In this document: piece after piece, positions 14,975 through 30,269 of the stretch | Numbering within the stretch: position 1 is the first letter of the stretch | Layout of the letters: each line of letters opens with the position of its first letter | Assembly: GCA_014905635.1 (NCBI GenBank) | Contig: JABVCE010000002.1 | Coordinates: forward strand, 1,240,001 to 1,304,000 | Length of the DNA stretch: 64,000 bases | Direction of reading: 5' to 3' | DNA from: Scenedesmus sp. PABB004 | Taxonomy: Eukaryota | Translations under genes and position numbers: made by a program | The notes under the pieces: model-generated | The model's database searches: none | What the model was told of the DNA's origin: nothing | The model's input: only the letters and a program-made list of their open reading frames with translations

Positions 14975-15188
14975 GGCAGGACGAGGGCGCTCGCGAAGAT
15001 CACGGGCCCGCGCTCTCCCTGGGGCGCCCACGGCGTCGCCTCGCGTGGAGGTGGGAGGCCAGCGGGTGGGCCATCGCCCGCACGAGTCCCGCCAGTCATC
15101 CCGCCCTCGCCCGGCCCCGACGCGCACTCCCCCGCGCTCCACGCGCTGCCACGCCGCCGCCCCGCGGCCCCGCGCAGCGCCAATTGCG

Positions 15189-15947
15189 ATGGCCGCCCTG
15201 CTGGCTCGCGGCGCGGCCGCGCCCGCGGCGCTGCTGCGGCGCCGGGCGCCAGGTGCGTGGCGGCGGCACAATGGGGCGCGCCGGGGCGCGCCGCGCTCGG
15301 CTGGCGCGGGCGCCCGCGCGCTGCTGACGGCTGCGATTGCGTGGTGGCCGCAGGCGCCCTGGGCCGCCCCCTGGTCCGGCGGGCCCGCCTGGCGCCCCGC
15401 GCCATGCTGCCCGGCATGGAGCACGTGGCAGCGCTGCACAGCCACGCCGCCAGGTGCGGCGGCGGCGCGGCGCGGCGCAGCGGCAGCGGCGAGCGCGGCG
15501 CGATGCGCGCGGGCGAGATCGGCGCGCGCCCATGCCCCGCGCGCCGTGCCGCCCCGCAGCCTGCACGGCCTGGCGCAGAGCCTGGCGACGCTGGCGGACG
15601 CAGACTCCACGGTCGAGGCGGCCGCGAGCGCCGCGACGACCGCCGCGTCGAGCCAGGGCGGCGGCGCGTTTGGCTTCCTGGCGGACGGCTTCGAGGCCTT
15701 CCTCAAGGCGCGCAGCAGGGGGCCGCGCAGCAGCGGGGTGGCCCAGCGCGGGCGCGCCAGCAGCGCAGCCGCTCGGCGCGGCAGTGCCCCCGGCGCCGCC
15801 GCCGACCGACGCGCGCGTCCCGACGCGCACGCAGGTGCTCGAGGGCGGCCTGGAGCGCGCGGGCGTGCCGTACAGCTACGGCTTTGCCATCATCATCCTC
15901 ACGCTGCTCGTCAAGGGCGCGACCTACCCGCTCAGCCGCAAGTCGGT

Positions 15948-16004
<57 letters not shown>

Positions 16005-17421
16005 GCGCGCGCGCGCGCGCCGCAGGGGCTTGCCCGGGCTGCAGCGCTGACGCCGCCGCCGCCGCCGCCGCCGCGGCGCCGCCGCGCAGATGGAGAGCAC
16101 GATGGCGATGCAGGCGGTCGCGCCGCGCGTGAAGGAGCTGCAGGCGCGCTACGCGAACGACCCCGAGACGCTGCAGCTCGAGACGGCGCGGCTGTACAAG
16201 AGCAGCGGCATCAACCCGCTCGCCGGCTGCCTGCCCACGCTCGCGACCATCCCCGTCTTCATCGGCCTCTACCGCGCGCTCACAAAGGCCGCTGACGACG
16301 GCCTGCTCACGAGCGGGTTCTTCTGGATCCCCTCGCTCGGCGGGCCGACCAGCATCGCCGCGCGCCAGGCGGTGCGCCGCGCGGCCGGGGCAGCGCAGCG
16401 AGCGCGCAGGCGGCGGCGGCGACGCGCGGACGCCGACGCGCCCGCGCCTGCGCGCGCGCGCGCGCAGGGCTCTGGCCTCAACTGGCTCTTTCCGTTTGTC
16501 GACGGCGCGCCGCCGATCGGGTGGCACGACGCGGGCGCGTACCTCGTGCTGCCGGTGCTGCTCGTGGTGAGCCAGTGGGCGAGCCAGAAGATCGTGAGCC
16601 CGCAGAGCAGCGACCCCGCGCAGCAGCAGACGCAGGCGATCCTCAGCTTCATCCCGTTCATGATCGGTGAGCGCGCGGGGCTCAGGGGGCGGGGCTCAGG
16701 GGGCGGGGTTCAGGGGACAAAACCCTCGCCCTCCCCGGGCCCGCCGCCGCCGCCGGCGGCGCGCCCGCGGCTGACCGGCCGCGCGGCGCCGCCGCGCTGC
16801 TCCCCCGCCTGCGCGCCGCGCAGGGTGGTTCAGCCTGAACGTGCCGAGCGGGCTCACGCTGTACTGGTTTGTGAACAACATCATCTCCACCGCCATGCAG
16901 CTCTACATGAAGAGCACCATCAAGGTGCGCGCGCGCGCGCGGCGCCGGGCGCAGCAGGGGCGCGGCGGCGCGGCGCGGGCGGCGGCGGGCGCGGCAGGGG
17001 CGCCGCGGCCGAGAGCGCGCGCGCGCTCGCGCGCCCGCAGGTGGACCTGCCGCCGGTGGCGGCCGCGGGCGAGGCGCCGGGCATCATCGACGTGACGGGC
17101 ACGGTCATCAAGCCCAAGGAGGACCGGAAAAAGGAGGGCTCCGGCAAGGAGCTGGGCAGCCGCAAGAAGGCCCGCCGCGACGACGAGCCCAGCAGCAGCG
17201 CGCCGTCGCCCGCGGCCGGCGGCGGGGCGCAGCAGTCGGGCGGGCGCGGCCAGAAGTTCTCGGCCCGCAAGTCGCGGGAAGCGGCCGCCAAGGCCGCCCA
17301 GCAGGCCGGCCTCGCCGCGCCCAACGGCGCCGCCGCGGCGGCGGAGCCCGCGCCCGCGCCCGCGGCGACGAGCACGTTGGAAAGCGTAAAGGTGCCCGAC
17401 GCGCCGCCGCGCAAGGACTGA
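15189..17421 (+). CDS. ALB3: ALBINO3 (YidC/Oxa1 family) thylakoid membrane insertase
   Basis: GGAFGFLADGFEAFLK|VL, VPYSYGFAIIILTLLVK, GINPLAGCLPTLATIPVFIGLYRAL, GFFWIPSLGGP, AYLVLPVLLVVSQ, WFSLNVPSGLTLYWFVNN; basic C-terminal tail; transit-peptide-like N-terminus. Confidence 0.95.
15948..16002 (+). repeat. (AGC)n microsatellite, ~18 units, in an ALB3 intron
   Basis: Perfect agc run directly after the gtgag donor. Confidence 0.9.
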
Positions 17422-18052
17422 GCGCGCGTGGCGCGTGCCGGGGCGCGGGGCTGGCCGGGGAGGGGCGGGCGAGAGGGACGGGGACGGCGGGCGGCGGGCG
17501 TCGGGCGGCGGGCGGCGGGCGGGGCGGCCCGCGCGCGCGCGCGGTGCGTTTTTGTGCAGCAGGTGTGTCGCGCGGCGTGGCGCGTGGCTGAATTCAGCTG
17601 GTAGGGAGTTCGCATAACCCCGGCTCCGTATAATGTGGCGCCAGCGCACGTGCGCTCCTCATTATGTTGCAGCGGCGGCGACGACGCGCGTGCGCTGTGC
17701 GGCGCAGCCGCGCGATTGTGTGGCGGCGTGCGCGAGAGTGGCAACGGAGAGCAGCCCACCCGACCGACCGGCGCGCTGGCAGCCCCGCCCAGGCTAGGCC
17801 AGCTGCGGCGCCGCCACGGCTCGGTCGCGCGGGCCCGCAGCAGGGCACAGCGGCGGCGTAGCGGCGCGCCCGCACGGGCGCCGCGCCGGCCGGGTGGCCG
17901 CGCCGGCCGTCGTGGCTGCCAGCATACGTGCGCCGCACGACGCAGGCAGGCCCCCCGGCCAGCGCTGCCACACGCCCGACCCGATCTGTCCCCGCGCGGC
18001 CCTGCGCGCCAATCCGCGCCCGCGCTAGGCGCCGTCGCGACCGACGATCGCC

Positions 18053-19717
18053 ATGCTGCGCGCGGCGGGCGGCCTGGTGGCGCGCCTGCAGCAGGGGGGG
18101 GCGGCCCAGGGCGCCCTCGCCTGCGCTGCGGACGCGCTGCAGGGCGGCCTGTCCGCGCTGGCGGCCGAGTTCGGCACCCTAGCAGACCGGTGCGCCCGGG
18201 AGGCCCGCCGGCGCGGCGGCGCGGCCGCCGCGCGGCGCGCGGGAGCGGCGCGCGGGGCAGCAGCAGCGGCAGCGGCAGCGGCCCTCGCCGCCGCCGCGGC
18301 CGCGGCGCCCCGCATCTCACCGCGCCCGGCAACCGCCGCAGGCCGTCCAGCAGCTCCGGCGTGGCGGCGCTGCAGCAGGCGGCGGGCAGCGCCAGCGGCG
18401 CCGCGGCGCCGCCCGCGGCCGGCGCGGGCGCCGCGCAGCTGCAGCAGGCGCGCTGCATGTCGCTGCGCTACGCGCGTCGCCTGGACAAGCAGAACGCGGC
18501 CTACTCCCACAGGTGGCGCCCGCCGCTGCTGCGGCGCGCGGCGCGCGGCGCGCGGCGCGGCCCGCGGGCAGCGCTCACCCCGCAGCGCCCGCCGCCGCCG
18601 CGGCACGCACCGACCGCGCCCCCGCGCTTGCAGGAACGACGTCGTCGCGTTCCAGGGCGGCCTGACGGACTACCTCATCAAGGTGGTGCCCAGCTGGATC
18701 AAGTTTGGCGTCGCGGGGCCGGGGCAGTCGACCAACGTGTACGAGGAGCCAACGCTCTACACCTCGCCCGAGCACCTCCTGCCGCTCGTCAGGCGCGCCC
18801 AGCCGCCGCCGCACCCGCCGCCGCCGCTGCGCCGTCACCGCCCCTGCCTCGACCCCACCTCACCTCACCCACACCTCGCCCCCGCCCCACGCCCGCCGCG
18901 GGCGCGTGGCCCGCGCGCGCGCGCGCAGGTTTCTGCGCGACCACGTCAACACGCAGTTCAAGTGCTTCATCGACGTCACCGCGGTCGACTTCCCCGAGCG
19001 CCCCGCGCGCTTCGAGGTCGTGTACCACCTGCTCTCGCCGCGCTGGAACAACCGCATCCGCATCAAGGCGCGCGCGCGCGCGCGGCATGCGCACGCGCGG
19101 CGGCGGCAGAGGCGGCGGCAGAGGCGGCGGCGGAGGCGGCGGGGCCGCGCCGCCGACGCGGGCGCGCTGCCGGGCGCGCCGCGCAGGTGTGCGTCGACGA
19201 GGTCACCGCGGTGCCGAGCCTCACGCCGCTGTACCCCGCGGCCGACTGGTTTGAGCGCGAGACGTGGGACATGTTCGGCGTCTTCTTCAGCGGCCACCCC
19301 GACCTGCGCCGCATCCTCACAGACTACGGCTTCCAGGGCCACCCGCTGCGCAAGGACTTCCCGCTCACGGGTTACACAGAGGCGCGCCGCCGCCGCCGCG
19401 ACCGCCGCCGCCGCCGCCGCCGCTGCCAGCTCCGCCGCCGCCCGCGCCGCCCGCGCCTGCGCCGCGCGTCTCACGCGCCCCTTGTTGTCTGCAGGTGAGG
19501 TACGACTACGGCAAGAAGCGCGTCGTCACGGAGCCGCTGGAGCTCACGCAGGAGTTCAGGTGCGCCCGCCCGACCCCCTCTGCGCCCCCTCCCCCCCCCC
19601 CCCTCGCCCGCGCCCTGCGCGGCCCCGCGCCTCACGCCGCCGCCGCCGCCTCGCTCCCCCCCCCCCATCCGCAGGTACTTTGACTTCAGCTCGCCGTGGG
19701 ACACGCTGCCGCGCTGA
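18053..19717 (+). CDS. NDUFS3: NADH:ubiquinone oxidoreductase 30 kDa subunit (NDUFS3/Nad9), nucleus-encoded with presequence
   Basis: [96 protein letters not shown]. Confidence 0.96.
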
Positions 19718-20248
19718 GCGGGCGCGGCGGAGCCGGGCGTGCCGCCGCGGCCGGCGGGGGGACGGGCGCGCCGTTCGCTGGGCGGGCGGGCGGGGGCGCT
19801 CGACGGGACGAGCGCGAGCTTGACCGATCGCACTGCGTAGTAATGCGCGACGAGGGGCCGGCGCGCGCTGCCGCCGGGCCGAGGCCGCTCAAGCAGCTGC
19901 CGCGCCCCCGCCAAGGCCGCGCGCGACGGAGGGGGTGGCGGCACACGATTTTACACGGCCAGCGGCCACCGCCGCAGCCACCACTCACCGCCCACACTCC
20001 AACGCGCGAGCACACACGGTGGCGCCTGGGCGCGGAGCGCCGCGCGCCCGCACCGGCACCGCCGCCCCCGGTGGAGGGTGGCGGACGCTGCCGTGCGCGG
20101 GGGGCCCTTTCAGGTCATTACACGGCCCGGGCAGGCAGCCGTGGGGGCTGCTGCTGCGGGCTGCGCGACTGCAGCGCCGCGCTCAGTGCCGACAGCGCGT
20201 CTACCTGCACCTGCGCACTCCCAGCGCTCCTGCTGGCGCGCGAGGCGA

Positions 20249-21142
20249 TCAGTCGTCGTACACGCTGCGCACGCGGCGGCGCGGGGCGGCGGGTGAGCGA
20301 GGAACAGGAGGGCGCGGACGCCCGGCCGCTGGCCGCGCCACCGCTGGCAGCCCAGCTCCCCCGCTGCAGCTGGCTCCCCGCTGCCGCTGGCGGCGCCTCT
20401 CGCCGCGCGCAGCGCGCCGCGCACCGGCACTCGTCGGCGTCGGGGTTCTCGCCGCAGAACTGCTCGAGGGGGTCGCTGGACGCGGCCTGCGGGCTCGGCG
20501 GGCGTGGCGCTGAGGCGCAGACGCGCCGGGCCGCGGCCTGCGCCGCCGCGCGGCAGCAGCGCCAGTCCGAGCAGCGGCGAGCGCCCGCGCCCGCGCCGGC
20601 CCCGCCGCCCCTCCTTGGCTGGCCGGCGCGCGCCCCGTGCGCCCGGGCGCGGCGGCAGCGCTCACGTCGGCGACCTTCTTGTGGCTGATGGCGGCGCTGA
20701 TCTCCTCCACCTGCGGCAGCGCGCCGCGTGAGCCGCGGCCCGTATTGCGGCGCGTGCGCGCGCCCGGGACGGCGCGGCGGACTCACGTTGTCCCAGGCCG
20801 CGGCGCACTCGCCGGCGGTGCCGTCGGCGCACTTCTCCTCGGCCTCCTTGATGGCCGTCTCAACAGCAGCCTTGTCCTGCGCGTCGACGGCCGCTCAGCG
20901 CCGCATTGCGCGCGACGCGCTCTAACGACCGACAGGCGCCCGCGGCGCGGCGCCATGCGGCCGCAGCGCGCCGCGGGGAGGGGTGGCCGCGCCATCCGCG
21001 CCCGCCCCTGCGCGCAGGGGCCGCCACTCACGGGCGTGGAGCTGCGCATGGCCACGCGGGGCAGCGGGCGCACGCTCACGGCGCGCGGGCCGGCGGCGCG
21101 GGCGACGGGGCTCGCGCGGACGCTGCGCATGGTGAGGGCCAT
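20249..21142 (-). CDS. CP12: CP12 Calvin-cycle regulatory protein
   Basis: Transit peptide MALTMRSVRASPVAR, then AIKEAEEKCADGTAGECAAAWDN|VEEISAA and DPLEQFCGENPDADECR|VYDD. All four Cys and the AWDxVEE motif are present. Confidence 0.96.
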
Positions 21143-21590
21143 CGCGCGAGCTGCTGGCGGGGTGTGGCGGGCAGTTGCGGGCTGAGGGCGAGTCACAAGA
21201 GCGATCCGGACGCCTCTGCACGGTGCAGGCAGCAATGCTGCAGCCTCGCGGCTTTTGCCAGCGCTGACCCCCCGGCAGCAGCTGCGCCGGGCAGCCCGCC
21301 GTTTTCCGGCCTCAGCGACCGAGAACACGCCGTCGAGGCGCGCCCGCGTGGCCCAATGCGGGCCCCGCGGGCGCTGCTGGCGCCGGCCTTAGCACAGGCG
21401 CTCCCTCGGCGCCCTCCCGCCGCGACCCCCGGTGCTGCCGCCAGCTGCACGGGAGGGCGCCGCCCGCCTGCCTACGCCGGCGGTTGTGCGGCGGCGCGGC
21501 GTCGGCGCCAGGCGGCGGCGCGCGCTGCGAGCGCGCTGGCCGCGCCGCCCAGCGCGCTCGCACCTCTCTCCTGCGCCTCCCGGCTTCCCC

Positions 21591-23364
21591 TCAGCTCGGC
21601 TGCACCCACACAAACTCCTCGACGTACGCCGATGGCCCGCGCGGGCCCTCGACCGGCGGCGGCGTGCAGCTCGCGGGGCACGAGTACACTGCGATCGTGC
21701 CCCTGCGGCGGCGGCGGGGCACAGGCGCGGCGGCGCGCGGGCGTTGGGGCGCGCAGCCGGCGGCTGCGCCGCCCGGCGGGCGGGCGGGGCGCCGTGCAGC
21801 GCAGCCCGGGCGCGGGCGGCGCGCCGGCGGCGCCGTCCGCGAGGGCGCGGCGGCTGCGGGCCGCTGCGCACCAGTCGGGGGCGTGGGGGTCCCCCGGGTC
21901 GAGCTCCATCAGCGACAGCAGCTGCGGCATCACCTGCGGCGCGCGCGGCGCGCGGGGTCGGACCTCGGCGCGCGCGCGCGGGCGGGGCGCCGCCGCCGTG
22001 CGGCGGGTAGGCGCAGGCGCCAGCCGGGGCGTGCGCGCGGGGGAGGCATCAGGGTGTGTCTGAAAGGTGTCCACATTGTGGTTTCAGGTCAAAGTGAAGA
22101 AGTGATTGCATCACCTGCCGCCCCCGCACGCACACGCACACGCACACAGGCGCACACGCGCTCGCCGCCGCGGCGCCCGCGCCGCGCACCTGGAACTCAA
22201 AGCGTCGCGCCGCGCCGCAGTGCGGGCAGGGCGGGATGTCGCCCGGCGCCGGCACGCACTCGTGCGACGGCCACAGCGGCGCCGCGCCGGGCTGGAAGCA
22301 GTAGCGCAGGCACTGCTCCGGCGCGAGCGCGGTGCGCGCCTGGAAGGCCTGCGCTCGCGGTCGCGGCGGCGGCGGGCACGTCGGCGGCCGTCGCGCGCTC
22401 CCGCGCCCGGCCCCTGCGCGCGCCGCCGCCGCCAGCGCCGCCCGCCCCGCCGCCGCCGCGCGGCGGCGCACCGCAAACGCGCGCTGCGCCGGCCCCGCCG
22501 CGCTCTCGAGCTGGTCCACCAGGTCCCCGGCAGCTCCTGCTCGTCATACTCCCCCTCCTCCGCCACGCGCGCGTTGTACGCCGCCAGCAGCCTGACCGGC
22601 GACGCGGCGCGGCGGTGTGAGGCAAGGGCCGCGGGCCGCGGGCCGCGGCGCCCGCACGCGCTGCGTCGCCGCCTCACCGCGCGACCTCGCCGCGCCGCGC
22701 GCCGGCGCCGCCCTGCCCCTCCTCGTCGTCGCCATCGTCGCCGTCCTCGCTCGGCTCCGGCTCGACCACGAGCTCCTGCTCCGCGAACAGCGGCACGCCG
22801 CCCGCGGCCGCGGCCGCCGCGTCGGCCACCGCCGCGCCGCCCGCGATCGCGGCCTCCGCGTCGACGACGCGCCAGGGGTCGCGCTCGCGCGCGAGCGCCG
22901 CCTCGGCCGCGCCCAGCGGCACCGGCGCGGCCTGGCCCTCGGGCGCGGGCGCGTCGCCGTAAAACGCGTTGGCCCGCCGCAGCTGGCAGCGCAGCGCGCG
23001 CACCGCGCCGGGCTTGGCGAGCTCGTCGCCCTGCGCGCGCGCGGGCGGGCGGCTCGCCGCCGCGCGGCCCCCGCCGCCGCCGCGCCGCGCGCCGCGCGCG
23101 CCGGGCCCCGGGCGGGGGCTCTCACTCACTCACTCACTCACTCACTCACTCACTCACTCACTCACTCACCCGGGGCGATATGAAGAGGAACAGTGTTCGG
23201 TGGAACGCCTCGACCGGGCAGCCCGAGGCCGGGCAGTACACCTGCAGCAGGAAGCGCAGCGCCTCGCCGCTCACGCCGCACGTCAGCTGCGCCGGCGTCG
23301 GCAGGTTGAGCGGGTCCAGCCACGCCTGCGCGGCGGCGGCGCGCGGCGCCCGGACGTGGGCGGC

Positions 23365-23395
<31 letters not shown>

Positions 23396-23729
23396 TGGCA
23401 CTGCGGCGCGCTCGCTGGCCGCCCGCCGGCGGGCGGCGCACCGGCGCGCCGCCGACTTTGCTGGGAAAGCGGTGGCGCAGCAGGTCGGTGGGGCGCTCCG
23501 GGTCGTCCAAGAAGCCCAGCATGTACTGCGCGGCGGGGGCAGCGCCGGCAGCGTCGGCAGCAGCGGCAGCGCGCCGCGTCGCGGCTGGCGCCGGCGGTGT
23601 CGCGCGCGGCGACGCGCAGGCGCGTGTGTAGGCCTGGCTGCCAGTGCAGGCGCGGGCGCCGGGGTCGGCGCGCACCTCCGGGCCCTCCTCCGGCTCGTCG
23701 TCCGAGTCCGCTGGCGGCCGCCCCGGCAT
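21591..23729 (-). CDS. PDCD2: PDCD2/TSR4-family protein (uS5 chaperone, ribosome biogenesis)
   Basis: FPSKVGGAP|AWLD, LRFLLQVYCP, FHRTLFLF, VRALRCQL, PEQCLRYC, IPPCPHCGAARRFEFQ|VMPQLL, DW|GTIAVYSCPASC, YVEEFVWVQ. Confidence 0.9.
22045..22119 (-). ncRNA. Intronic box C/D snoRNA, U36/snR47-like (LSU rRNA 2'-O-methylation guide)
   Basis: AT-rich island in a GC intron. On the minus strand: box C GTGATGC (22114-22108), guide TTCTTCACTTTGAC + box D' CTGA (22087-22084), box D CTGA (22052-22049). Flanked by an 18-bp inverted repeat with 16/18 matches (22031-22048 vs 22116-22133). The guide is complementary to conserved LSU rRNA GUCAAAGUGAAGAA. Confidence 0.85.
23121..23169 (-). repeat. (GTGA)n tetranucleotide microsatellite starting at a PDCD2 5' splice site
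   Basis: Plus strand (ctca)x~12; the minus strand reads exon ..ISPR then GTGAGTGAGTGAGT... Confidence 0.9.
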
Positions 23730-24150
23730 GGCTGCTCCGCGCTGCGCCGCCGGGCGCGCCCGCGCGGCAGGACGTTCAGGGGCCGATCCTGCAGCCGTGG
23801 AAGTGGGCTGCACCTCCGCCGCGCGGCGAGCACGCGGTGTGCGCCCCCAGGCGGCCGCTGCTGCTGCTGCTGCTGCTGCGGTCGGCGCCTAGCGGCGACG
23901 TTCCTGGTCGCGAATTATCACGGGCGTTTTCCTCAGCGACCGAGAACACGACGCGGTGCTTGGTCGGGGCGCAGGGCCTGTGCCTGCGCGCCATAAGGCC
24001 GCCCGCGCTCGCCCACGGCGGCACAAGGGGCCCCCGGGATCGCGCCATCGCTTGCTGCCCGCAAGCGCCGCCCGGTAAACGGCCGCCCACGCCCAGGCAG
24101 CGCACCGCGGCGCGCGGCGGCAGCGGCGCCGGCCGCGCCCGCCCGCCGCC

Positions 24151-27100
24151 ATGCGCGCCGGCTTCCTTGGCGGCCCGGCGGCCGCCCGGGCCGCCGCTCC
24201 GCATCATGCCCCGGCAGCGCCCGCCGGCGCGGCAGCGTCGCCGCCGCCCGCGCCGGCGCGTGCAGCGGCGCCGGCGCCGCTCGCCGGCGGCGCCGGCGAG
24301 CGCAGCAGCGACGCGTGGCAGCAGCAGTGGCGCGCGTGCCTGGAGCTGCTGCGCTCCGACGTGGACGAGAAGAAGTTTGTGGGCCTGCTGCTCGTGACCA
24401 AGCTCCTGCCCGCCGGCCGGGACGGGGGAGTCGCGGAGGTCCTGGACGCGGTGGGCTGGGCCTTCGTGCAGCGCCTGCTGCTGCCCCTCAGCAGCGCGGC
24501 GCACCAGGCGGCGTCGCCGGCGCCCGACGACGCGCGGCTGCAGCAGCAGCACCTCTCGGCGGTGCTCGGCCTCAGCATCCTCGCCGCGGCGTGCCGCCTG
24601 CCCGAGGTTGCGCGCGGCGACGAGGTGCTGTCCCTCACGCCGCTGCTGCTCAAGGTCGCGGCCGCGGGCGGCGTGGCGCCGCTGCTCCTCGCGGCGCCGC
24701 CGCCCGGCGGCGGCGCGCCCGGCGGCGGCGGCGACGGCGCCGCGGCGGCGGCGCCGGCGCGGCCGGCCTGGGCGGACCCGCCGGCCGAGGCGGCCGCGGC
24801 GGTCGACGCGCTCGAGGCCCTGCTCGCGTGCGCCGGCGACGGCGAGGCCTACCCCGCGCGCGTGCTGGCCGAGAGCGGCGGCTTTGCCGGGGCCGTGGCG
24901 GCGCTGGCCGCGGCGCTGCGCGCCCTCGACGAGGCCGGCGGGGGCGCGGCGCCCGCGGCGGCGGCGGCGGCGGCGGCCGGCGGGCCGGTCGGCGGCGACG
25001 GCGCGGCGGCCGCGCGTGCGAGCGCGCTGCAGGCGGTCATGCTCTCGACACGGCTGCTCAGCCTGGTGCTCGGCGGCCCGGGCGACGCGGCCGAGGCGAC
25101 GGGCCAGCGCCCCGCCGACGCGGCGGCGGCGGTCATGCTGCTGGCTCGCGTGCTCGGCGGCGGCCTCGCGGCCGCGGGCGACGGCGTCGACGGCGCGGCG
25201 CTGCAGCTCCAGGCGCAGCACGCGCTGCTGCTGCTGCTGCCGCTGCCTGAGCGCAGCGCGGCGGCCGCGCACCTGGCGGCCGCCGCGGATGCGGCCGCAC
25301 GCGGCGGGCCGGGGCCGCGCCGCCGGCTGCCGCCGTGGGCGCAGCAGCCGCAGGCCGGCAGCGCAGCCGCGGCGGCGGCGGCGCTCGCGGGCGACTGGCC
25401 GGCGGCGCTGCGGCGGGGGCTGGGCCAGGTGCTGCGCAGCCGCGTGGGCGCGGTGCAGCGCCACTCCGCGCTGCGGCTCGCCGCGGCGGCGCTGGAGCTG
25501 CTGGGCCCCGCGTGGCTGCTGCCGCCGGCGGCGGGGCCGCGGCAGCCGGCCGAGGAGGGCCCGGAGCAGTTCCTGCTGGTGCTGGTGGAGGTGCTGGGCG
25601 TGGAGACGCCGCTGCTGCTGAGCGACGCGATGAACCCCGACGCCACGGTGCCGCGCGGCGACCTCAGCATGGACGCGCGCCGCCCCGACGCGGGCGGCGA
25701 CGACGCGGGCGGCGACGGCGCGGGCGGCGACGTGGACGCCGGCAGCGACGGCGACAGCGACGACGACGACGCTGCCATGCAGGGCGCGCCGGGCAGCGGC
25801 GCGGCCGCGGCAGAGGCGGTGTCGGTGCGCGCCGCGCTGGAGCGGGTTGGGGAGCAGGGCGCGGCCGTGGGCGGGGCGCAGCAGGGCCCGCCCGGCTTTG
25901 AGCGCGCGCCCGCGGGCAAGCCGCTGGCGCAGCAGCTCGCGGAGCTGGCGCTGCCGCCCGACCGGCCGCCGGGGCCGGGGCAGCAGTCGGCGGGGCAGCG
26001 CGCGGCGGTGGTGCTGCCGGCCTGCTACCAGCTGCTGGAGGGCGTGTGCGAGGTGCTCGTCGACCAGGTGGCGCTCATGGAGGCGCTGGCAGACCTGCAC
26101 GGCGGCGCGGACGGCGGCCCGGACGGCGGCCGCGCCGACGCCGGTGCGGGAGGCGCGCCGGGCGGCGCGGTCTGGCCCCGCGCGCTGCCGGCGCTGGAGC
26201 CGGCGCAGGCGGGGCAGGTCATGGGCCGACTGCAGGCCGTCACGGGCGTGCTGGTCGAGTTCCTCGCCGCCGCGACGGCGCCGGGCAGCGGCGTGGACGC
26301 GCTGCTCGCGCTCGGCGGCGCGCGCGCGCTCGCCCGGTTCCTCGCCGACGCGCCGGGCGCGCACCAGGACGCGCTCGCGCCGCTGCTGCCGGCGCTGCTG
26401 CGCCTGGCGCTGCCGGGCGACGGCGGCGCGCCGGCGGGGACGGGCTTCCTGCTGCCCGCGCTGCTCTCCTGGACAGCGCCCAGCAGCGAGGCGGCGCAGC
26501 ACTGGGCGGGCGTGCTGCTCGCGCCTGGCGGCGGCTGCCTCGAGGCGCTGTGCGGCTTTGCGGCGGCGCAGGCGGCCGCCGCCGCGGCGGCCACCGCGGC
26601 CGCGGCCGGCGCGGGCGCGGGCGCCGACAGCGCCGGCGCGGAGCAGCACGCTGCAGAGGCGCGGCTCGGCCCTGCGTGCCAGGTGCTGCTGCAGCTGCTC
26701 GCCAGCGTGCCGGCGGGGCTGGCGCCGCAGCAGGCCGCGGCGCGCCTGCAGGACGGGCAGCTGGCGGCGCCGGCGCAGCTCCTGCGGGCGCTCGCGGCCT
26801 GGGGCGGCGTGCGCCGCGCCCAGGCGGCGGCGGCAGCGGCGGCGGCGGGCGCGCCGGCGAGCGGCGATGACGCTGTCGCGGCCGCGGGCGGCGCGCTGGC
26901 GGCTCTCGTGCGCGCGCGCGTGGGCCTGGCGTCGCTGCTGCCGGCCGCGGCGCTGGCGGGGCTGCTGCTGCTGCAGCTGGGCGCGGCGCGGTGCGCGCCG
27001 CTCGCGCCCGCTGACGCAGACGGCGCCGCCGCGCTGCTGGCGTGGGGCTGCGAGGCCGGCTGGAGCTGCCAGCTGGTCGCGGCGGCGCGGGAGCTCGCGG

Positions 27101-27393
27101 CTGGCGCGCCCGGCGCGGCGCCGCCCCCGCTGGGCACGGTCGCCGCCGCCGCGGCCGCCGCGGCGCTTGAGGCCTGGGCCGACGCGGAGCTTGGCGACGC
27201 CTGGGACGCCTGCCTGTCGGCCACGGCGGAGCTCCTGGTGGAGCGGCTGCCGCCCGCGGCGGCCCTCGCCGGGGCGCTGCGCGGCGCGCCGTGGGCGGCC
27301 CCTGGCGCGGGCGGCGGCGGCGCCGCGGGCGAGGTGCTCGCGTCCACCGCGGGCCTGCAGCTGCTGCGCGGCGCGCTGGCGGGCGCCGGGTGA
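24151..27393 (+). CDS. Neurochondrin-family ARM-like protein, apparently intronless
   Basis: N-terminal WRACLELLRSDVDEKKFVGLLLVTKLL, VLDAVGWAFVQRLL, LGLSILAAACRLPEVA, LRRGLGQVLRSRV, FLLVLVEVLGVE, ARALARFLADAP, FLLPALL match the neurochondrin pattern; single 1080-aa ORF. Confidence 0.82.
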   Translation: MRAGFLGGPAAARAAAPHHAPAAPAGAAASPPPAPARAAAPAPLAGGAGERSSDAWQQQWRACLELLRSDVDEKKFVGLLLVTKLLPAGRDGGVAEVLDAVGWAFVQRLLLPLSSAAHQAASPAPDDARLQQQHLSAVLGLSILAAACRLPEVARGDEVLSLTPLLLKVAAAGGVAPLLLAAPPPGGGAPGGGGDGAAAAAPARPAWADPPAEAAAAVDALEALLACAGDGEAYPARVLAESGGFAGAVAALAAALRALDEAGGGAAPAAAAAAAAGGPVGGDGAAAARASALQAVMLSTRLLSLVLGGPGDAAEATGQRPADAAAAVMLLARVLGGGLAAAGDGVDGAALQLQAQHALLLLLPLPERSAAAAHLAAAADAAARGGPGPRRRLPPWAQQPQAGSAAAAAAALAGDWPAALRRGLGQVLRSRVGAVQRHSALRLAAAALELLGPAWLLPPAAGPRQPAEEGPEQFLLVLVEVLGVETPLLLSDAMNPDATVPRGDLSMDARRPDAGGDDAGGDGAGGDVDAGSDGDSDDDDAAMQGAPGSGAAAAEAVSVRAALERVGEQGAAVGGAQQGPPGFERAPAGKPLAQQLAELALPPDRPPGPGQQSAGQRAAVVLPACYQLLEGVCEVLVDQVALMEALADLHGGADGGPDGGRADAGAGGAPGGAVWPRALPALEPAQAGQVMGRLQAVTGVLVEFLAAATAPGSGVDALLALGGARALARFLADAPGAHQDALAPLLPALLRLALPGDGGAPAGTGFLLPALLSWTAPSSEAAQHWAGVLLAPGGGCLEALCGFAAAQAAAAAAATAAAAGAGAGADSAGAEQHAAEARLGPACQVLLQLLASVPAGLAPQQAAARLQDGQLAAPAQLLRALAAWGGVRRAQAAAAAAAAGAPASGDDAVAAAGGALAALVRARVGLASLLPAAALAGLLLLQLGAARCAPLAPADADGAAALLAWGCEAGWSCQLVAAARELAAGAPGAAPPPLGTVAAAAAAAALEAWADAELGDAWDACLSATAELLVERLPPAAALAGALRGAPWAAPGAGGGGAAGEVLASTAGLQLLRGALAGAG

Positions 27394-27926
27394 GCTTGCC
27401 GGCCACCGGCAGCGGCGCCGCCACTGCGACAACTTGCGCCGAGTGCACGGCGGGGGTGGGCGCCGGGCAGCAGGCGCGCCGCCGCCGTGCTGCGCCGGTC
27501 GCGCACCCAAGCCGCAGCGCCGCGGCGGTCGGCGGTTGAGCGGGAGGGAGCGGTGGCACTGCCAGCAGGCGACTGCGAGCGTGGACAGTTGAAGCCCAAC
27601 AGCTGCGCCGCCGGCGAAACGCGGGCGGCGCGCTTGAAATCTGACGGCGCCGCTGCCGCCGCTCCAGCGCGCCCCCGCCGCTCCCCGGCGCTCAGTTGCC
27701 GCGCGCTGAGACCGTCCCGCACCCCGCCACAGCACGCGGGCTGCCGCCCCAGCGCCCGGCCTCGCAAGGGCCGCTGCCCTCGCGCCCCGGCGCGTCGTGG
27801 GCCCCGCACCCCGGTACCGTGCGTTCCCGCACCCGAACAGCGCGTCCGTGGGCCGCGGCAGCGCCGCCGTCGAGCGAGCGCCCGGGCAGCAGCGGCGGCG
27901 CATCCCCCTCCACAACGCCGGCGGCG

Positions 27927-28919
27927 ATGGCGTCCTACCCCGCGGAGCCCTTCAAGCAGGCGGACAGCCTGCTCACCGGCCTGCTGGAGAGCTACCGCAG
28001 CTCCAGCGACGCGTCCGACATCGCCGACATCCAGAGCCTGCTGGAGACGACGGTGAAGATTGCGCGAGACCGCGAGTTCAAGGTCTCCGCCAGCATCAAG
28101 GGTGCGCGGCGCCGCCCGCCCGGCGGCCGCGACGGCGGCGGCGGCGCGGCGGTGGGGACGAGGGCCGCAGCGCAGGCCGCGGCCGCCAGCCGCTGGCAGC
28201 GCCGCCGGCAACCGCCGTGCGCGCGCGTGCGCGCCGGCGCAGAGCTGTCGCACAAGGTCACGGAGCTCGAGGCCGCGGCGGTGTACAGCGACGCCAAGGC
28301 GGCGCACGAGGCGCGCATGGCCCAGATCAACAAGGCCATCGCCGAGGTGCAGCTGGAGGTGCAGCAAGTCAGCGCCGACATAAGATGAGCCGGCGCTCGC
28401 GCCGCGCCGCCCGCCCGCACGCCCGCGCGCGCGTGGCCGGCCCGGCGGCCAGCAGCAGACCAGCGGCGCCCGCCCGCGCTGACGCCGCGGCGCTGCCGCC
28501 GCCGGCCGCGCGCACAGGCGCGAGCGACCAGCAGGAGGGCCTCAAGGCGCGGCAGCAGCAGCTGCAGGCAGACAGGGAGCAGCTGGCGGAGCTGCAGCAG
28601 GTGGTGGAGCCGGACATGCTGTGAGTGGACTCGCCGCGCGCGCCGCAGCGCCCACCCCCCGCAGCGTGGCGCGTGACGCGTTGCCCGCCCCGCCCCTGCC
28701 CTTTGCCCGCGCCCCGCGCGCCGCAGCAAGCGCATCTCCCTGTACGCCCACATCAGCGGCCTCGGCTTTGACTACGCGACCCTGGCGCAGCCGCTGCTGC
28801 GCGCCACGGTGTCGGACACCGCCGCCGCCGACATCCGGCGCGTCGAGTTTGACACCGCCGCGCCGCCGCTGGAGGCGGTCAACGCGCTGTGGGCGGACAT
28901 CCCCGTGCCGCCCGTCTGA
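27927..28919 (+). CDS. SPC24: Kinetochore protein Spc24-like (NDC80 complex)
   Basis: Coiled coil followed by KRISLYAHISGLGFDY...DIRRVEFD..PLEAVNALW, the RWD-like tail typical of Spc24. 4 exons; intron 2 is non-canonical (see findings). Confidence 0.65.
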
Positions 28920-29090
28920 CCCGTGGCGGCCCGGCCGGCGGCGCCGCGGCGCTGACGCCGCGCTGCATGTACCACCAAACAAGGCTTGCAAGGCACTTGC
29001 GAGCTGGGCAGCTCGGCCCAGGAGCGCGCGGGCGGGCGGGCGGGCGCCGCGGGGGCCTCGGGCGGAGGCGTCCGCCGCCGTTGCAACGAC

Positions 29091-29866
29091 CTAGCTCGCC
29101 GCGGCGCGGCGCGTCTCCGCCGCCTCCGCCGCGATCGCCGCCACGCGCGGCCCAAACTCCGCGGCGACCTCCTCGTACACGGCGCGCTTGAAGCCGATGA
29201 CCGCCCCGGGCAGCTCCTCCAGCGGCGCCCAGCGCCACGCGCGGAACTCGCGGTGCTCCGTGTTGAGGTCCACCTCCGCGTCGTCGCCGGTGAAGCGCAA
29301 AAGGAACCAGCGCTGCGCCTGGCCCTTGAAGTGCGCCCACTCGCCCCACAGCCTGCTGCGCACGTCGGGAGGAAAGTCGTACGTCAGCCACCGCGGCAGC
29401 TCGGCCACGACCTCGACGCTGGTGATGCTGGTCTCCTCCTTGAGCTCCTGCGGCGGCGCAGCGGGCGAGCGGGTCAACATGCGCGGCAGCTCCTCGGCCG
29501 GTGGCCAGCGGCCAACACGGTGTGCGGCAGCCAGCGGCGGCGGCCCGCGGCCAACACGCCGCGCACCCGCAGCGCCGCCGCGAGTGCGCTCGTCTCGTGG
29601 GGGTCGATGCCGCCCTGGGGCATCTGCCACGCCGCCTTGCGACCCGTGTCCTTGGTCCGCTGCGCCGCAAAGACCAGGCCCGCCGAGTTCACGACGCACA
29701 CGCCGACGTTGGGCCGATAGTCCGCGAGCTCCTCCGGCAGGAGCGGCACCGGCTGCGCGCCGCCGGCGGCGTCATGTGCACGGCCAGTCAACCGTGCTGG
29801 CGGCGCTATGCGGGACATTTGGAGGCCCCAGCCGCCCCTGGCCAGCTGACTCGGCCGCAGCAGCAT
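29091..29866 (-). CDS. Nudix hydrolase, RppH / plant Ap4A-hydrolase (NUDT25-27) class
   Basis: [32 protein letters not shown] Nudix box, [36 protein letters not shown]. Confidence 0.92.
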
Positions 29867-30269
29867 GCGGCGCGTCGGGCCGGGCGCGGCGGCGCTCGCG
29901 CGGGTGGCACCGGCTCCGACAGCGGCGGCCGAGGGTTCAGCGGCCGAGGGGTGCCACCGCGACGCGCACGGACGGCTTCGCAGCTTCACGCGGAGGGCGG
30001 GGCGGCTTGGCAGCCTGCGCAGCGACGAGGCACCGCGGCGCAGCAGCAGCAGCAGCGGCGGCGGCGGCGGCGGCGGTGACCGCGGCGCGGTCGGCCTGCT
30101 GGTGCGGCAGTCGCGGGCGGCTGCTCGCGGGACAAGGTCGGGTGCTCGCACTGACGCGGGGGGCGCAACTGGCAGAAGTCACCGGCGCGGCGTGCGTGCC
30201 GCCGTCACACCCCAAGACCCAACTCTGCGCCGCCACCGCGCAACTCCCAGCAACGGCCGCCGCCGCCGC

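Follow-up and report, generated by a model that had tools for sequence, protein, structure and literature searches.

A U37-type box C/D snoRNA in a PDCD2 intron of Scenedesmus sp. PABB004 and how far its 5' end resembles the host splice acceptor

Can the 5' end of an intronic small nucleolar RNA (snoRNA) double as a regulated splice acceptor of the gene that hosts it? The question is raised by a PDCD2/Tsr4-type gene on the minus strand of a 64,000-nt stretch of Scenedesmus sp. PABB004 DNA (contig JABVCE010000002.1, positions 1,240,001 to 1,304,000; hereafter the window, in whose numbering positions are given). One intron of this gene carries a box C/D snoRNA whose box C and preceding AG repeat, over 11 nt, the true acceptor downstream. 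A first-pass annotation had proposed that this arrangement is a feedback switch, in which the availability of C/D snoRNA-protein complexes (snoRNPs) decides between a productive mRNA and an isoform subject to nonsense-mediated decay (NMD). Our analysis indicates that the locus quite probably holds an ordinary intron-encoded U37-type box C/D snoRNA, whose likeness to the acceptor would reflect overlapping constraints and chance and whose AG would not be a regulated splice site.

Its boxes, guide and stem identify the intronic element as a box C/D snoRNA that carries a SNORD37/U37-type guide and lies in a PDCD2/Tsr4-type gene (Table 1). Both the class of the snoRNA and its place inside a PDCD2-type (uS5 chaperone) gene had already been given in the first-pass annotation, and the boxes, the stem, the guide and a match to the PDCD2_C profile all bear this out. 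The snoRNA measures about 80 nt, or about 103 nt including its external stem (22133-22031, minus strand), and it forms the lowest-GC stretch found in the window (minimum 0.46 in 70-nt windows), which has an overall G+C content of 79.4%; the available text of PMC12571836 gives 78.5% for the Scenedesmus sp. PABB004 genome. The internal box D' is clear, and the putative box C' is merely a degenerate AUGUGGA. At relaxed thresholds the best Rfam match was SNORD37 (RF00440; 21.4 bits, E = 0.073 for the 351 nt searched), while no Rfam family was found at its gathering threshold anywhere in the 64-kb window, or in a run on 15000-30000. The guide together with D', UUCUUCACUUUGACCUGA, matches the SNORD37 model consensus at 18 of 18 positions and is thus the same guide. 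According to the available part of PMC3766210, SNORD37 is U37, targets A3697 of 28S rRNA and has EEF2 as its host; from the identity of the guides, the algal snoRNA is predicted to share this rRNA target. The 14-mer that would pair with the guide was sought in viral_contigs and gave 113 loci, taken as chance matches; judged by eye from the flanks of the recurring ones, with no Rfam check, they are unrelated, phage-like and not rRNA. Among the literature matches listed, none concerned a PDCD2-hosted snoRNA by title or abstract.

The host gene was read exon by exon by hand, and this reading agrees with a 334-aa annotated protein, 'PDCD2 [Scenedesmus sp. PABB004]' (P0001), which was 100% identical to the query exon in a protein search and matches PDCD2_C without a break over profile positions 6-110 (E = 1.5e-30). 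The last host exon matches positions 79-110, and the Pfam profile continues unbroken over the 22189/21934 junction. Across the intron P0001 reads FEFQ|VMPQLL (...RRFEFQVMPQLLSLMELD...), so that donor 22189 and acceptor 21934, the sites already given in the first-pass annotation, are those used in the annotated protein, and VMPQLL is kept in every full-length homologue carrying that region. The likely branch-point A of this intron is A21958, which lies downstream of an internal AG at 21965 and is followed by no further A until the true AG. PDCD2 is described as a dedicated chaperone of the ribosomal protein uS5 in the available portions of PMC13127195 and PMC10216425.

The geometry on which the switch was built is real. 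An exact-match scan confirmed the reported identity: the window holds two copies of the 11-mer, GCAGGTGATGC, and no more, both on the minus strand (22118-22108, running into box C, and 21937-21927, at the true exon start), with 0.04 matches expected from shuffling and two or more copies in none of 100 shuffles. Splicing from donor G22189 to the snoRNA AG (22116-22115) would remove 75 nt, as first reported, instead of the 256 nt removed by splicing to the true AG (21935-21934). The frame leaving the FEFQ exon through the snoRNA AG, ...RGRQVMQSLLHFDLKPQCGHLSDTP, does stop at the TGA within the box D CTGA, its last base being 22049, and the read-through peptide of this hypothetical isoform would be VMQSLLHFDLKPQCGHLSDTP. 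The remark that this short intron offers a single branch-point A is likewise correct, since its first 75 nt contain just two A's, A22162 and the A of the AG itself. The description as an in-frame poison exon does not fit. Strictly, splicing to the snoRNA AG would use an alternative 3' splice site with no donor of its own, making the following exon 181 nt longer (22114-21934), and would not create a cassette exon; of the features that define a poison exon (own acceptor and donor, a premature termination codon (PTC), conservation), the dedicated donor is lacking and the site is not conserved.

The conservation of the site can be read from relatives, at least four of which carry the same snoRNA in the same PDCD2 intron (L011, P0009, P0010 and P0013). 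A scan of metagenome contigs with the 18-mer of guide and D' yielded 86 loci, and the 18-mer sits in snoRNA-like surroundings in metagenome loci. One orthologous locus, L011 (71% GC), was recognized by tblastn with the exon peptides of the window. L011 keeps the order of FEFQ exon (68% identical over 53 aa, E = 2e-20), guide-bearing snoRNA and VMPQLL exon (76% over 21 aa). Its snoRNA, GUGUGGCG-G-AUGAUGA ... CUGA-CGCCACAC, preserves the pairing of the stem with a different sequence: where the window has GGCA-G opposite UGCC, L011 has GGCG-G opposite CGCC, the A of the AG being replaced by G and its partner U22048 by C. This two-sided compensatory change (A-U to G-C) keeps the stem and abolishes the AG, which suggests that the stem, and not the AG, is under selection. 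The exon start in L011 is GTCATGCCC (GUC AUG CCC) and, as there is no AG before box C either, neither half of the 11-mer identity exists there. The terminal stem of L011 is 8 bp long and its local fold is no stabler than shuffles (z = 0.06). After this snoRNA, at L011 324-339 on the minus strand, lies a run of about 16 G (ccccgggggggggggggggcag), perhaps an artefact of assembly, perhaps a homopolymer tract.

The protein-level orthologues are open reading frames (ORFs) from unspliced contigs that continue past the FEFQ exon into intron sequence, and the snoRNA can be followed in them as a peptide trace. The tail of P0013, ...ARDGCCILHFDLNTPCGQVIHTP (trace ...ILHFDLNTPCGQVIHTP-stop), aligns with the window read-through LHFDL..CG....TP; its RDG, combined with UGAUG, requires CGT GAT GG, so that a C precedes box C. 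In P0010 the tail ...WQMMDVEFFTLT (...QMMDVEFFTLT-stop) contains the guide and D' of the window in another frame as FFTLT-stop, and W-Q-M-M implies TGG CAR ATG ATG, that is GGCA, R and AUGAUGG, which makes an AG probable if R is G. P0009 shows the snoRNA trace after FEFQ in its tail ...GQGDDATITILHFDLKL (...ILHFDLKL). The stretch 5' of box D, which could hold a second guide, is in part common to the orthologs, reading ACAC.CUGA in L011 and leaving the trace ...TP-stop in P0013. The AG before box C, for which the first-pass annotation had called for an ortholog comparison, is thus present in the window, probable in P0010, absent from L011 (GG) and P0013 (C) and not readable in P0009, and cannot be called conserved. 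It also stood directly before box C in none of the 20 regex-flagged metagenome contexts with a box C just 5' of the guide; in two of them the register was off by 3 nt, and a reading by eye likewise showed no AG. In another alga, the annotated protein P0019 includes a short, snoRNA-free intron at the same position, translated in frame. Transcriptome ORFs of relatives retain the intron (P0006, which ends ...EFQVSRAMSGQL-stop, and P0011, which keeps both flanking introns), and P0008, from the same assembly as P0011, is spliced. None of the 19 retrieved proteins joined FEFQ directly to snoRNA-encoded residues, which is weak evidence.

With these relatives in hand, the identity itself can be taken apart. 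At the acceptor, AG, GT-, ATG and C are forced by splicing and the conserved Val-Met-Pro codons, and in the snoRNA TGATG is forced by box C, so that four of the 11 letters (T, A, T and G) are fixed at both copies. Splicing and the local consensus set GCAG at the true acceptor, GCAG being present at all seven real acceptors examined, and GGCAG in the snoRNA would be an inherited stem end, probably common to P0010. Three matching positions are left free: the R in box C, codon position 3 of Val (C in L011) and the final base of box C, which varies in the clade (A in L011, C in the window and P0009, G in P0013). With most of the 11 letters forced, the identity is less surprising than the shuffle expectation suggests. 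We would accordingly trace the identity to three sources: the overlap of box C UGAUG with conserved Val-Met codons, a stem end GGCAG that happens to resemble the acceptor consensus GCAG, and a chance match at the remaining free positions. A target-site duplication or insertion was considered as a source of the two 11-mers and rejected, as the flanks share nothing outside the 11-mer and the snoRNA is already in the intron of relatives whose exons are only 68-81% identical.

RNA folding places the AG inside a strong duplex. The 106-nt snoRNA region has a minimum free energy (MFE) of -49.3 kcal/mol (z = -5.6), and none of 200 shuffles was as stable. In the MFE fold the AG does lie in the terminal stem, as the first-pass annotation had it, though the stem comprises 17 bp (13 bp and 4 bp, with one unpaired base per strand) and not 18. 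The pair A22116-U22048 has a probability of 0.65 in the ensemble, and the paired probabilities of the snoRNA AG are 0.87 (A) and 0.92 (G), against 0.40 and 0.44 at the true AG; over positions -20 to +3 the mean unpaired probability is 0.05 at the snoRNA AG versus 0.19 at the true site. The idea that stem and bound snoRNP together cover the AG holds for the stem, which would mask it without any snoRNP protein. As the masking GC-rich RNA duplex is protein-independent, exposure of the AG would not report the availability of snoRNPs. The fold of the whole intron (21934-22189) has z = -3.0. Its flanks are G/T-rich upstream of the snoRNA (GUGUGCG repeats) and C-rich downstream, with GC skew reversing across the snoRNA, and in the MFE fold they pair well past the 17-bp stem and draw the ends of the intron together.

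Taken together, we envisage the following course, modelled on the known pathway. The intron would be spliced from 22189 to 21934 via a branch point near 21958, the lariat debranched, and exonucleases would trim back to a snoRNP assembled on the K-turn that boxes C and D form with the GC-rich terminal stem; the D' guide of this snoRNP would then direct 2'-O-methylation at the large-subunit (LSU) rRNA site corresponding to human 28S A3697. Here the AG before box C would be no more than the innermost A-U pair of the stem and one unpaired G, and, the host not being a snoRNP protein, there would be no feedback logic.

Several observations weigh against this account. The SNORD37 score of 21.4 bits is below the Rfam gathering threshold of 45 bits, and the target assignment rests on the identity of the SNORD37 guide, not on this alga's own rRNA. 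The AG is probably also present in P0010's organism and could be conserved within a sub-clade. The candidate branch point A22162 (GGCGAGC, 48 nt upstream) shares its heptamer with the sole candidate A of host intron 3 (at -24), and another real intron in the window has its sole A at -50. A scarcity of branch points was therefore rejected as an objection to the AG, since real introns have equally poor or distant candidate A's. Finally, we put the full 11-mer identity at one snoRNA/acceptor pair at about 1e-4 to 1e-3, a rough estimate that was not computed; chance at this level is acceptable because many windows were screened.

What else could the AG be? It might serve as an occasional cryptic acceptor, used for example before the 3' stem strand has been transcribed and giving a rare NMD by-product of no regulatory significance. 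Its acceptor-like GCAG|G and possible branch A would allow this, and the transcripts of relatives that retain the intron (P0006 and P0011, with P0008 spliced) imply that this intron is not processed at once. Against this stand a poor upstream tract, with 5 C, 18 G and 7 T in the 30 nt before the snoRNA AG compared with 15-18 C and 10-14 G at seven of seven real acceptors, the strong pairing of the AG, and the absence of the isoform from the 19 retrieved proteins. We regard such splicing noise as unlikely.

Another way to read the stem is that its unusual length and GC-richness evolved, or were retained, to hide an acceptor-like AG that had arisen within it. The 17 bp found here versus 8 bp in L011 (z = 0.06), and flanks that extend the pairing (z = -3.0 for the intron), fit this idea. 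Long GC stems nevertheless arise easily in a 79% GC genome, the comparison at the DNA level spans two species only, and in mammals external stems are also explained by the needs of snoRNP assembly when a snoRNA lies far from the branch point. A stem selected for concealment thus seems quite improbable.

The switch fares worse. In it, limiting C/D snoRNP would expose the AG, a 75-nt mini-intron would be removed, the snoRNA lost and the PTC-bearing PDCD2 mRNA degraded, coupling the output of a uS5 chaperone to snoRNP supply. Besides the exact geometry, the fit of GCAG|G to the local acceptor consensus (7/7), the heptamer shared with a real intron and the AG probably common to P0010's organism, it can draw on a PTC 177 nt upstream of the last exon junction and on precedent, cis-acting snoRNAs that send host splicing to NMD being described for SNORD86/NOP56 and SNORD2/EIF4A2 in the available text of PMC11028025. 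All this is outweighed by the compensated replacement of the AG in L011 and its absence from P0013's organism, by the lack of the 11-mer identity in L011 and of a C-rich tract before the AG, by a 17-bp GC stem (z = -5.6) that forms from RNA alone, so that exposure is no readout of snoRNP, and by a host that is no snoRNP protein and so closes no feedback loop. In addition, the direction is opposite to that of SNORD86, where snoRNP assembly promotes the non-productive isoform (PMC11028025, same portion). We consider the feedback switch of the first-pass annotation very improbable and do not retain it. The narrower notion that, within a Scenedesmaceae sub-clade of the window species and P0010's organism, GGCAG was co-opted as a structure- or snoRNP-gated decoy acceptor, by which failed folding or assembly of the U37-type snoRNA would give a truncated, NMD-prone PDCD2 isoform, is a similarly long shot.

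Table 1. Positions of the host gene, its snoRNA-bearing intron and the snoRNA elements in the window
Feature	Position	Strand	Basis or remark
PDCD2/Tsr4-type host gene	21591..23729	-	ATG 23729-23727, stop TGA 21593-21591; manual exon reading, P0001
Exon AFQARTALAPEQCLRY...CGAARRFEFQ, phase-0 end	22190..22348	-	PDCD2_C profile 7-57, E = 1.7e-13; 100% identical to P0001
snoRNA-hosting intron, 256 nt	21934..22189	-	Donor GTGCGC at 22189, true acceptor AG 21935-21934
5' stem strand GUGCGUGCGGGGG, unpaired C22120, GGCA	22116..22133	-	MFE fold; includes A of the AG
Proposed decoy acceptor AG, immediately 5' of box C	22115..22116	-	Sequence, composition, pairing
Box C, GUGAUGC	22108..22114	-	RUGAUGA variant, last position C not A; aligned to box C of several C/D families (cmscan)
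D' guide UUCUUCACUUUGAC	22088..22101	-	With D' box, 18/18 identical to Rfam SNORD37 consensus
Box D' CUGA	22084..22087	-	SNORD37 model alignment
Putative degenerate box C' AUGUGGA	22070..22076	-	Inferred; aligned to C' region of SNORD121A model
Stretch 5' of box D, 17 nt, possible second guide	22053..22069	-	In part common to orthologs
Box D CUGA	22049..22052	-	Provides the in-frame stop (UGA) for the hypothetical isoform
3' stem strand UGCC, unpaired U22044, CCCCCGCGCGCAC	22031..22048	-	MFE fold
Likely branch-point A of true intron, UCCGAC	21958	-	Inferred; 25 nt 5' of exon
Second 11-mer copy, true acceptor GCAG and GTG ATG C(CG), Val-Met-Pro	21927..21937	-	Exact-match scan
Exon VMPQLLSLMELDPGDPHAPD(W)	21872..21933	-	Sequence reading, L011 comparison, P0001

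The same guide was traced to other lineages through the metagenome loci. Among 146 same-strand ORFs at 12 loci, the hosts were uL2 in six cases (L001, L004, L005, L012, L032 and L069), eS30 in two (L043 and L046), an EF2-type gene in one (L075) and PDCD2 in none, so that hosts vary by lineage yet are all translation-related. Two tandem U37-type copies occur in L004, L005 and L050/L063. In L009, L027, L049, L080, L082, L083 and others, the same 14-nt guide stands next to the terminal box D and not D', and in these loci a second guide-like element (..GCGCUUGA and CCUGA) and an internal UGACGA-like box precede it. The same guide is carried by two architectures.

Elsewhere in the window, a second snoRNA candidate at 16830-16884 on the minus strand (ATGATGT...CTGA, with an AG in front) was rejected as the antisense of a plus-strand coding exon. 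The low-GC island at 16826-16936 (plus strand) is an exon of an Oxa1/YidC/Alb3-type insertase (60KD_IMP, E = 7e-07), whose opposite strand, through ATGATGT...CTGA and a 5-bp stem, looks like a C/D snoRNA; with E relaxed to 10 the candidate still matched nothing in Rfam. Within the host gene, the frame shifts at 22521-22530 on the minus strand, around a G-run at 22528-22525, with ...LLAAYNARVAEEGEYDEQELPG upstream and DLVDQLESAAGPAQRAFA in another frame downstream. In relatives, P0005, P0007 and P0008 read this region as a single 32-residue block, which P0001 omits (...AAYNAR|AFQAR...), and the break looks like a one-base difference in the length of the G-run, either an assembly error or a true lesion. 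Host intron 3 (approximately 23128-23169, minus strand) starts with about 10 tandem GTGA units (gtgagtgagtgag...), which create a ladder of donor-like GTGAGT sites spaced by 4 nt directly 3' of the exon end.

What is new at this locus is a U37/SNORD37-type methylation guide placed in a PDCD2 intron of a green alga. Residence in this one PDCD2 intron is common to several Sphaeropleales-like algae, with uL2, eS30 and EF2 as hosts in other lineages, a pattern that fits snoRNAs riding in translation-related hosts. A gated acceptor at the AG, which the evidence makes unlikely, would be the first case in which a snoRNA controls host splicing at a 3' splice site, and also the first such control outside animals; a sub-clade decoy, if true, would make the output of a 40S-assembly chaperone depend on how well C/D snoRNPs assemble, via a 3' splice site. 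The locus also carries a caution, as the UGAUG of box C overlaps coding words such as Val-Met and GC-rich stem ends mimic the splice consensus, so that striking identities can appear unselected.

Among known systems, the closest is SNORD37/U37 (RF00440) itself, with which the algal snoRNA shares guide and D' (18/18 nt); both lie in sense within an intron of a host gene related to translation, and the metagenome homologue L075 even lies in an EF2-type gene, as the human snoRNA lies in EEF2. It differs in its score (21.4 versus 45 bits), its 3' half, a box C ending in C, an external stem of 17 bp and a host that is PDCD2, not EEF2. The comparison made in the first-pass annotation was with SNORD86/NOP56, likewise an intronic C/D snoRNA beside an alternative splice choice that yields an NMD substrate (predicted in the alga), with assembly deciding the outcome, as set out in the accessible text of PMC11028025. 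In that account NOP56 is a snoRNP core protein and the loop is true autoregulation, whereas PDCD2 does not belong to the snoRNP; assembly steers towards the non-productive isoform, the reverse of the algal proposal; and the elements are kept across eutherians, whereas L011 and P0013's organism have other bases in place of the algal AG. The alternative isoform of the alga is a prediction from sequence. With its host and its direction both different, the SNORD86 analogy does not hold beyond a loose resemblance. SNORD2/EIF4A2 is comparable in that RNA structure around an intronic snoRNA affects host splice signals (PMC11028025 and PMC10324135, in the parts available), but there pairing between snoRNA and intron sequesters a real branch point and leads to exon skipping (PMC11028025, same part), whereas in Scenedesmus sp. 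PABB004 the snoRNA's own terminal stem hides merely a non-canonical AG.

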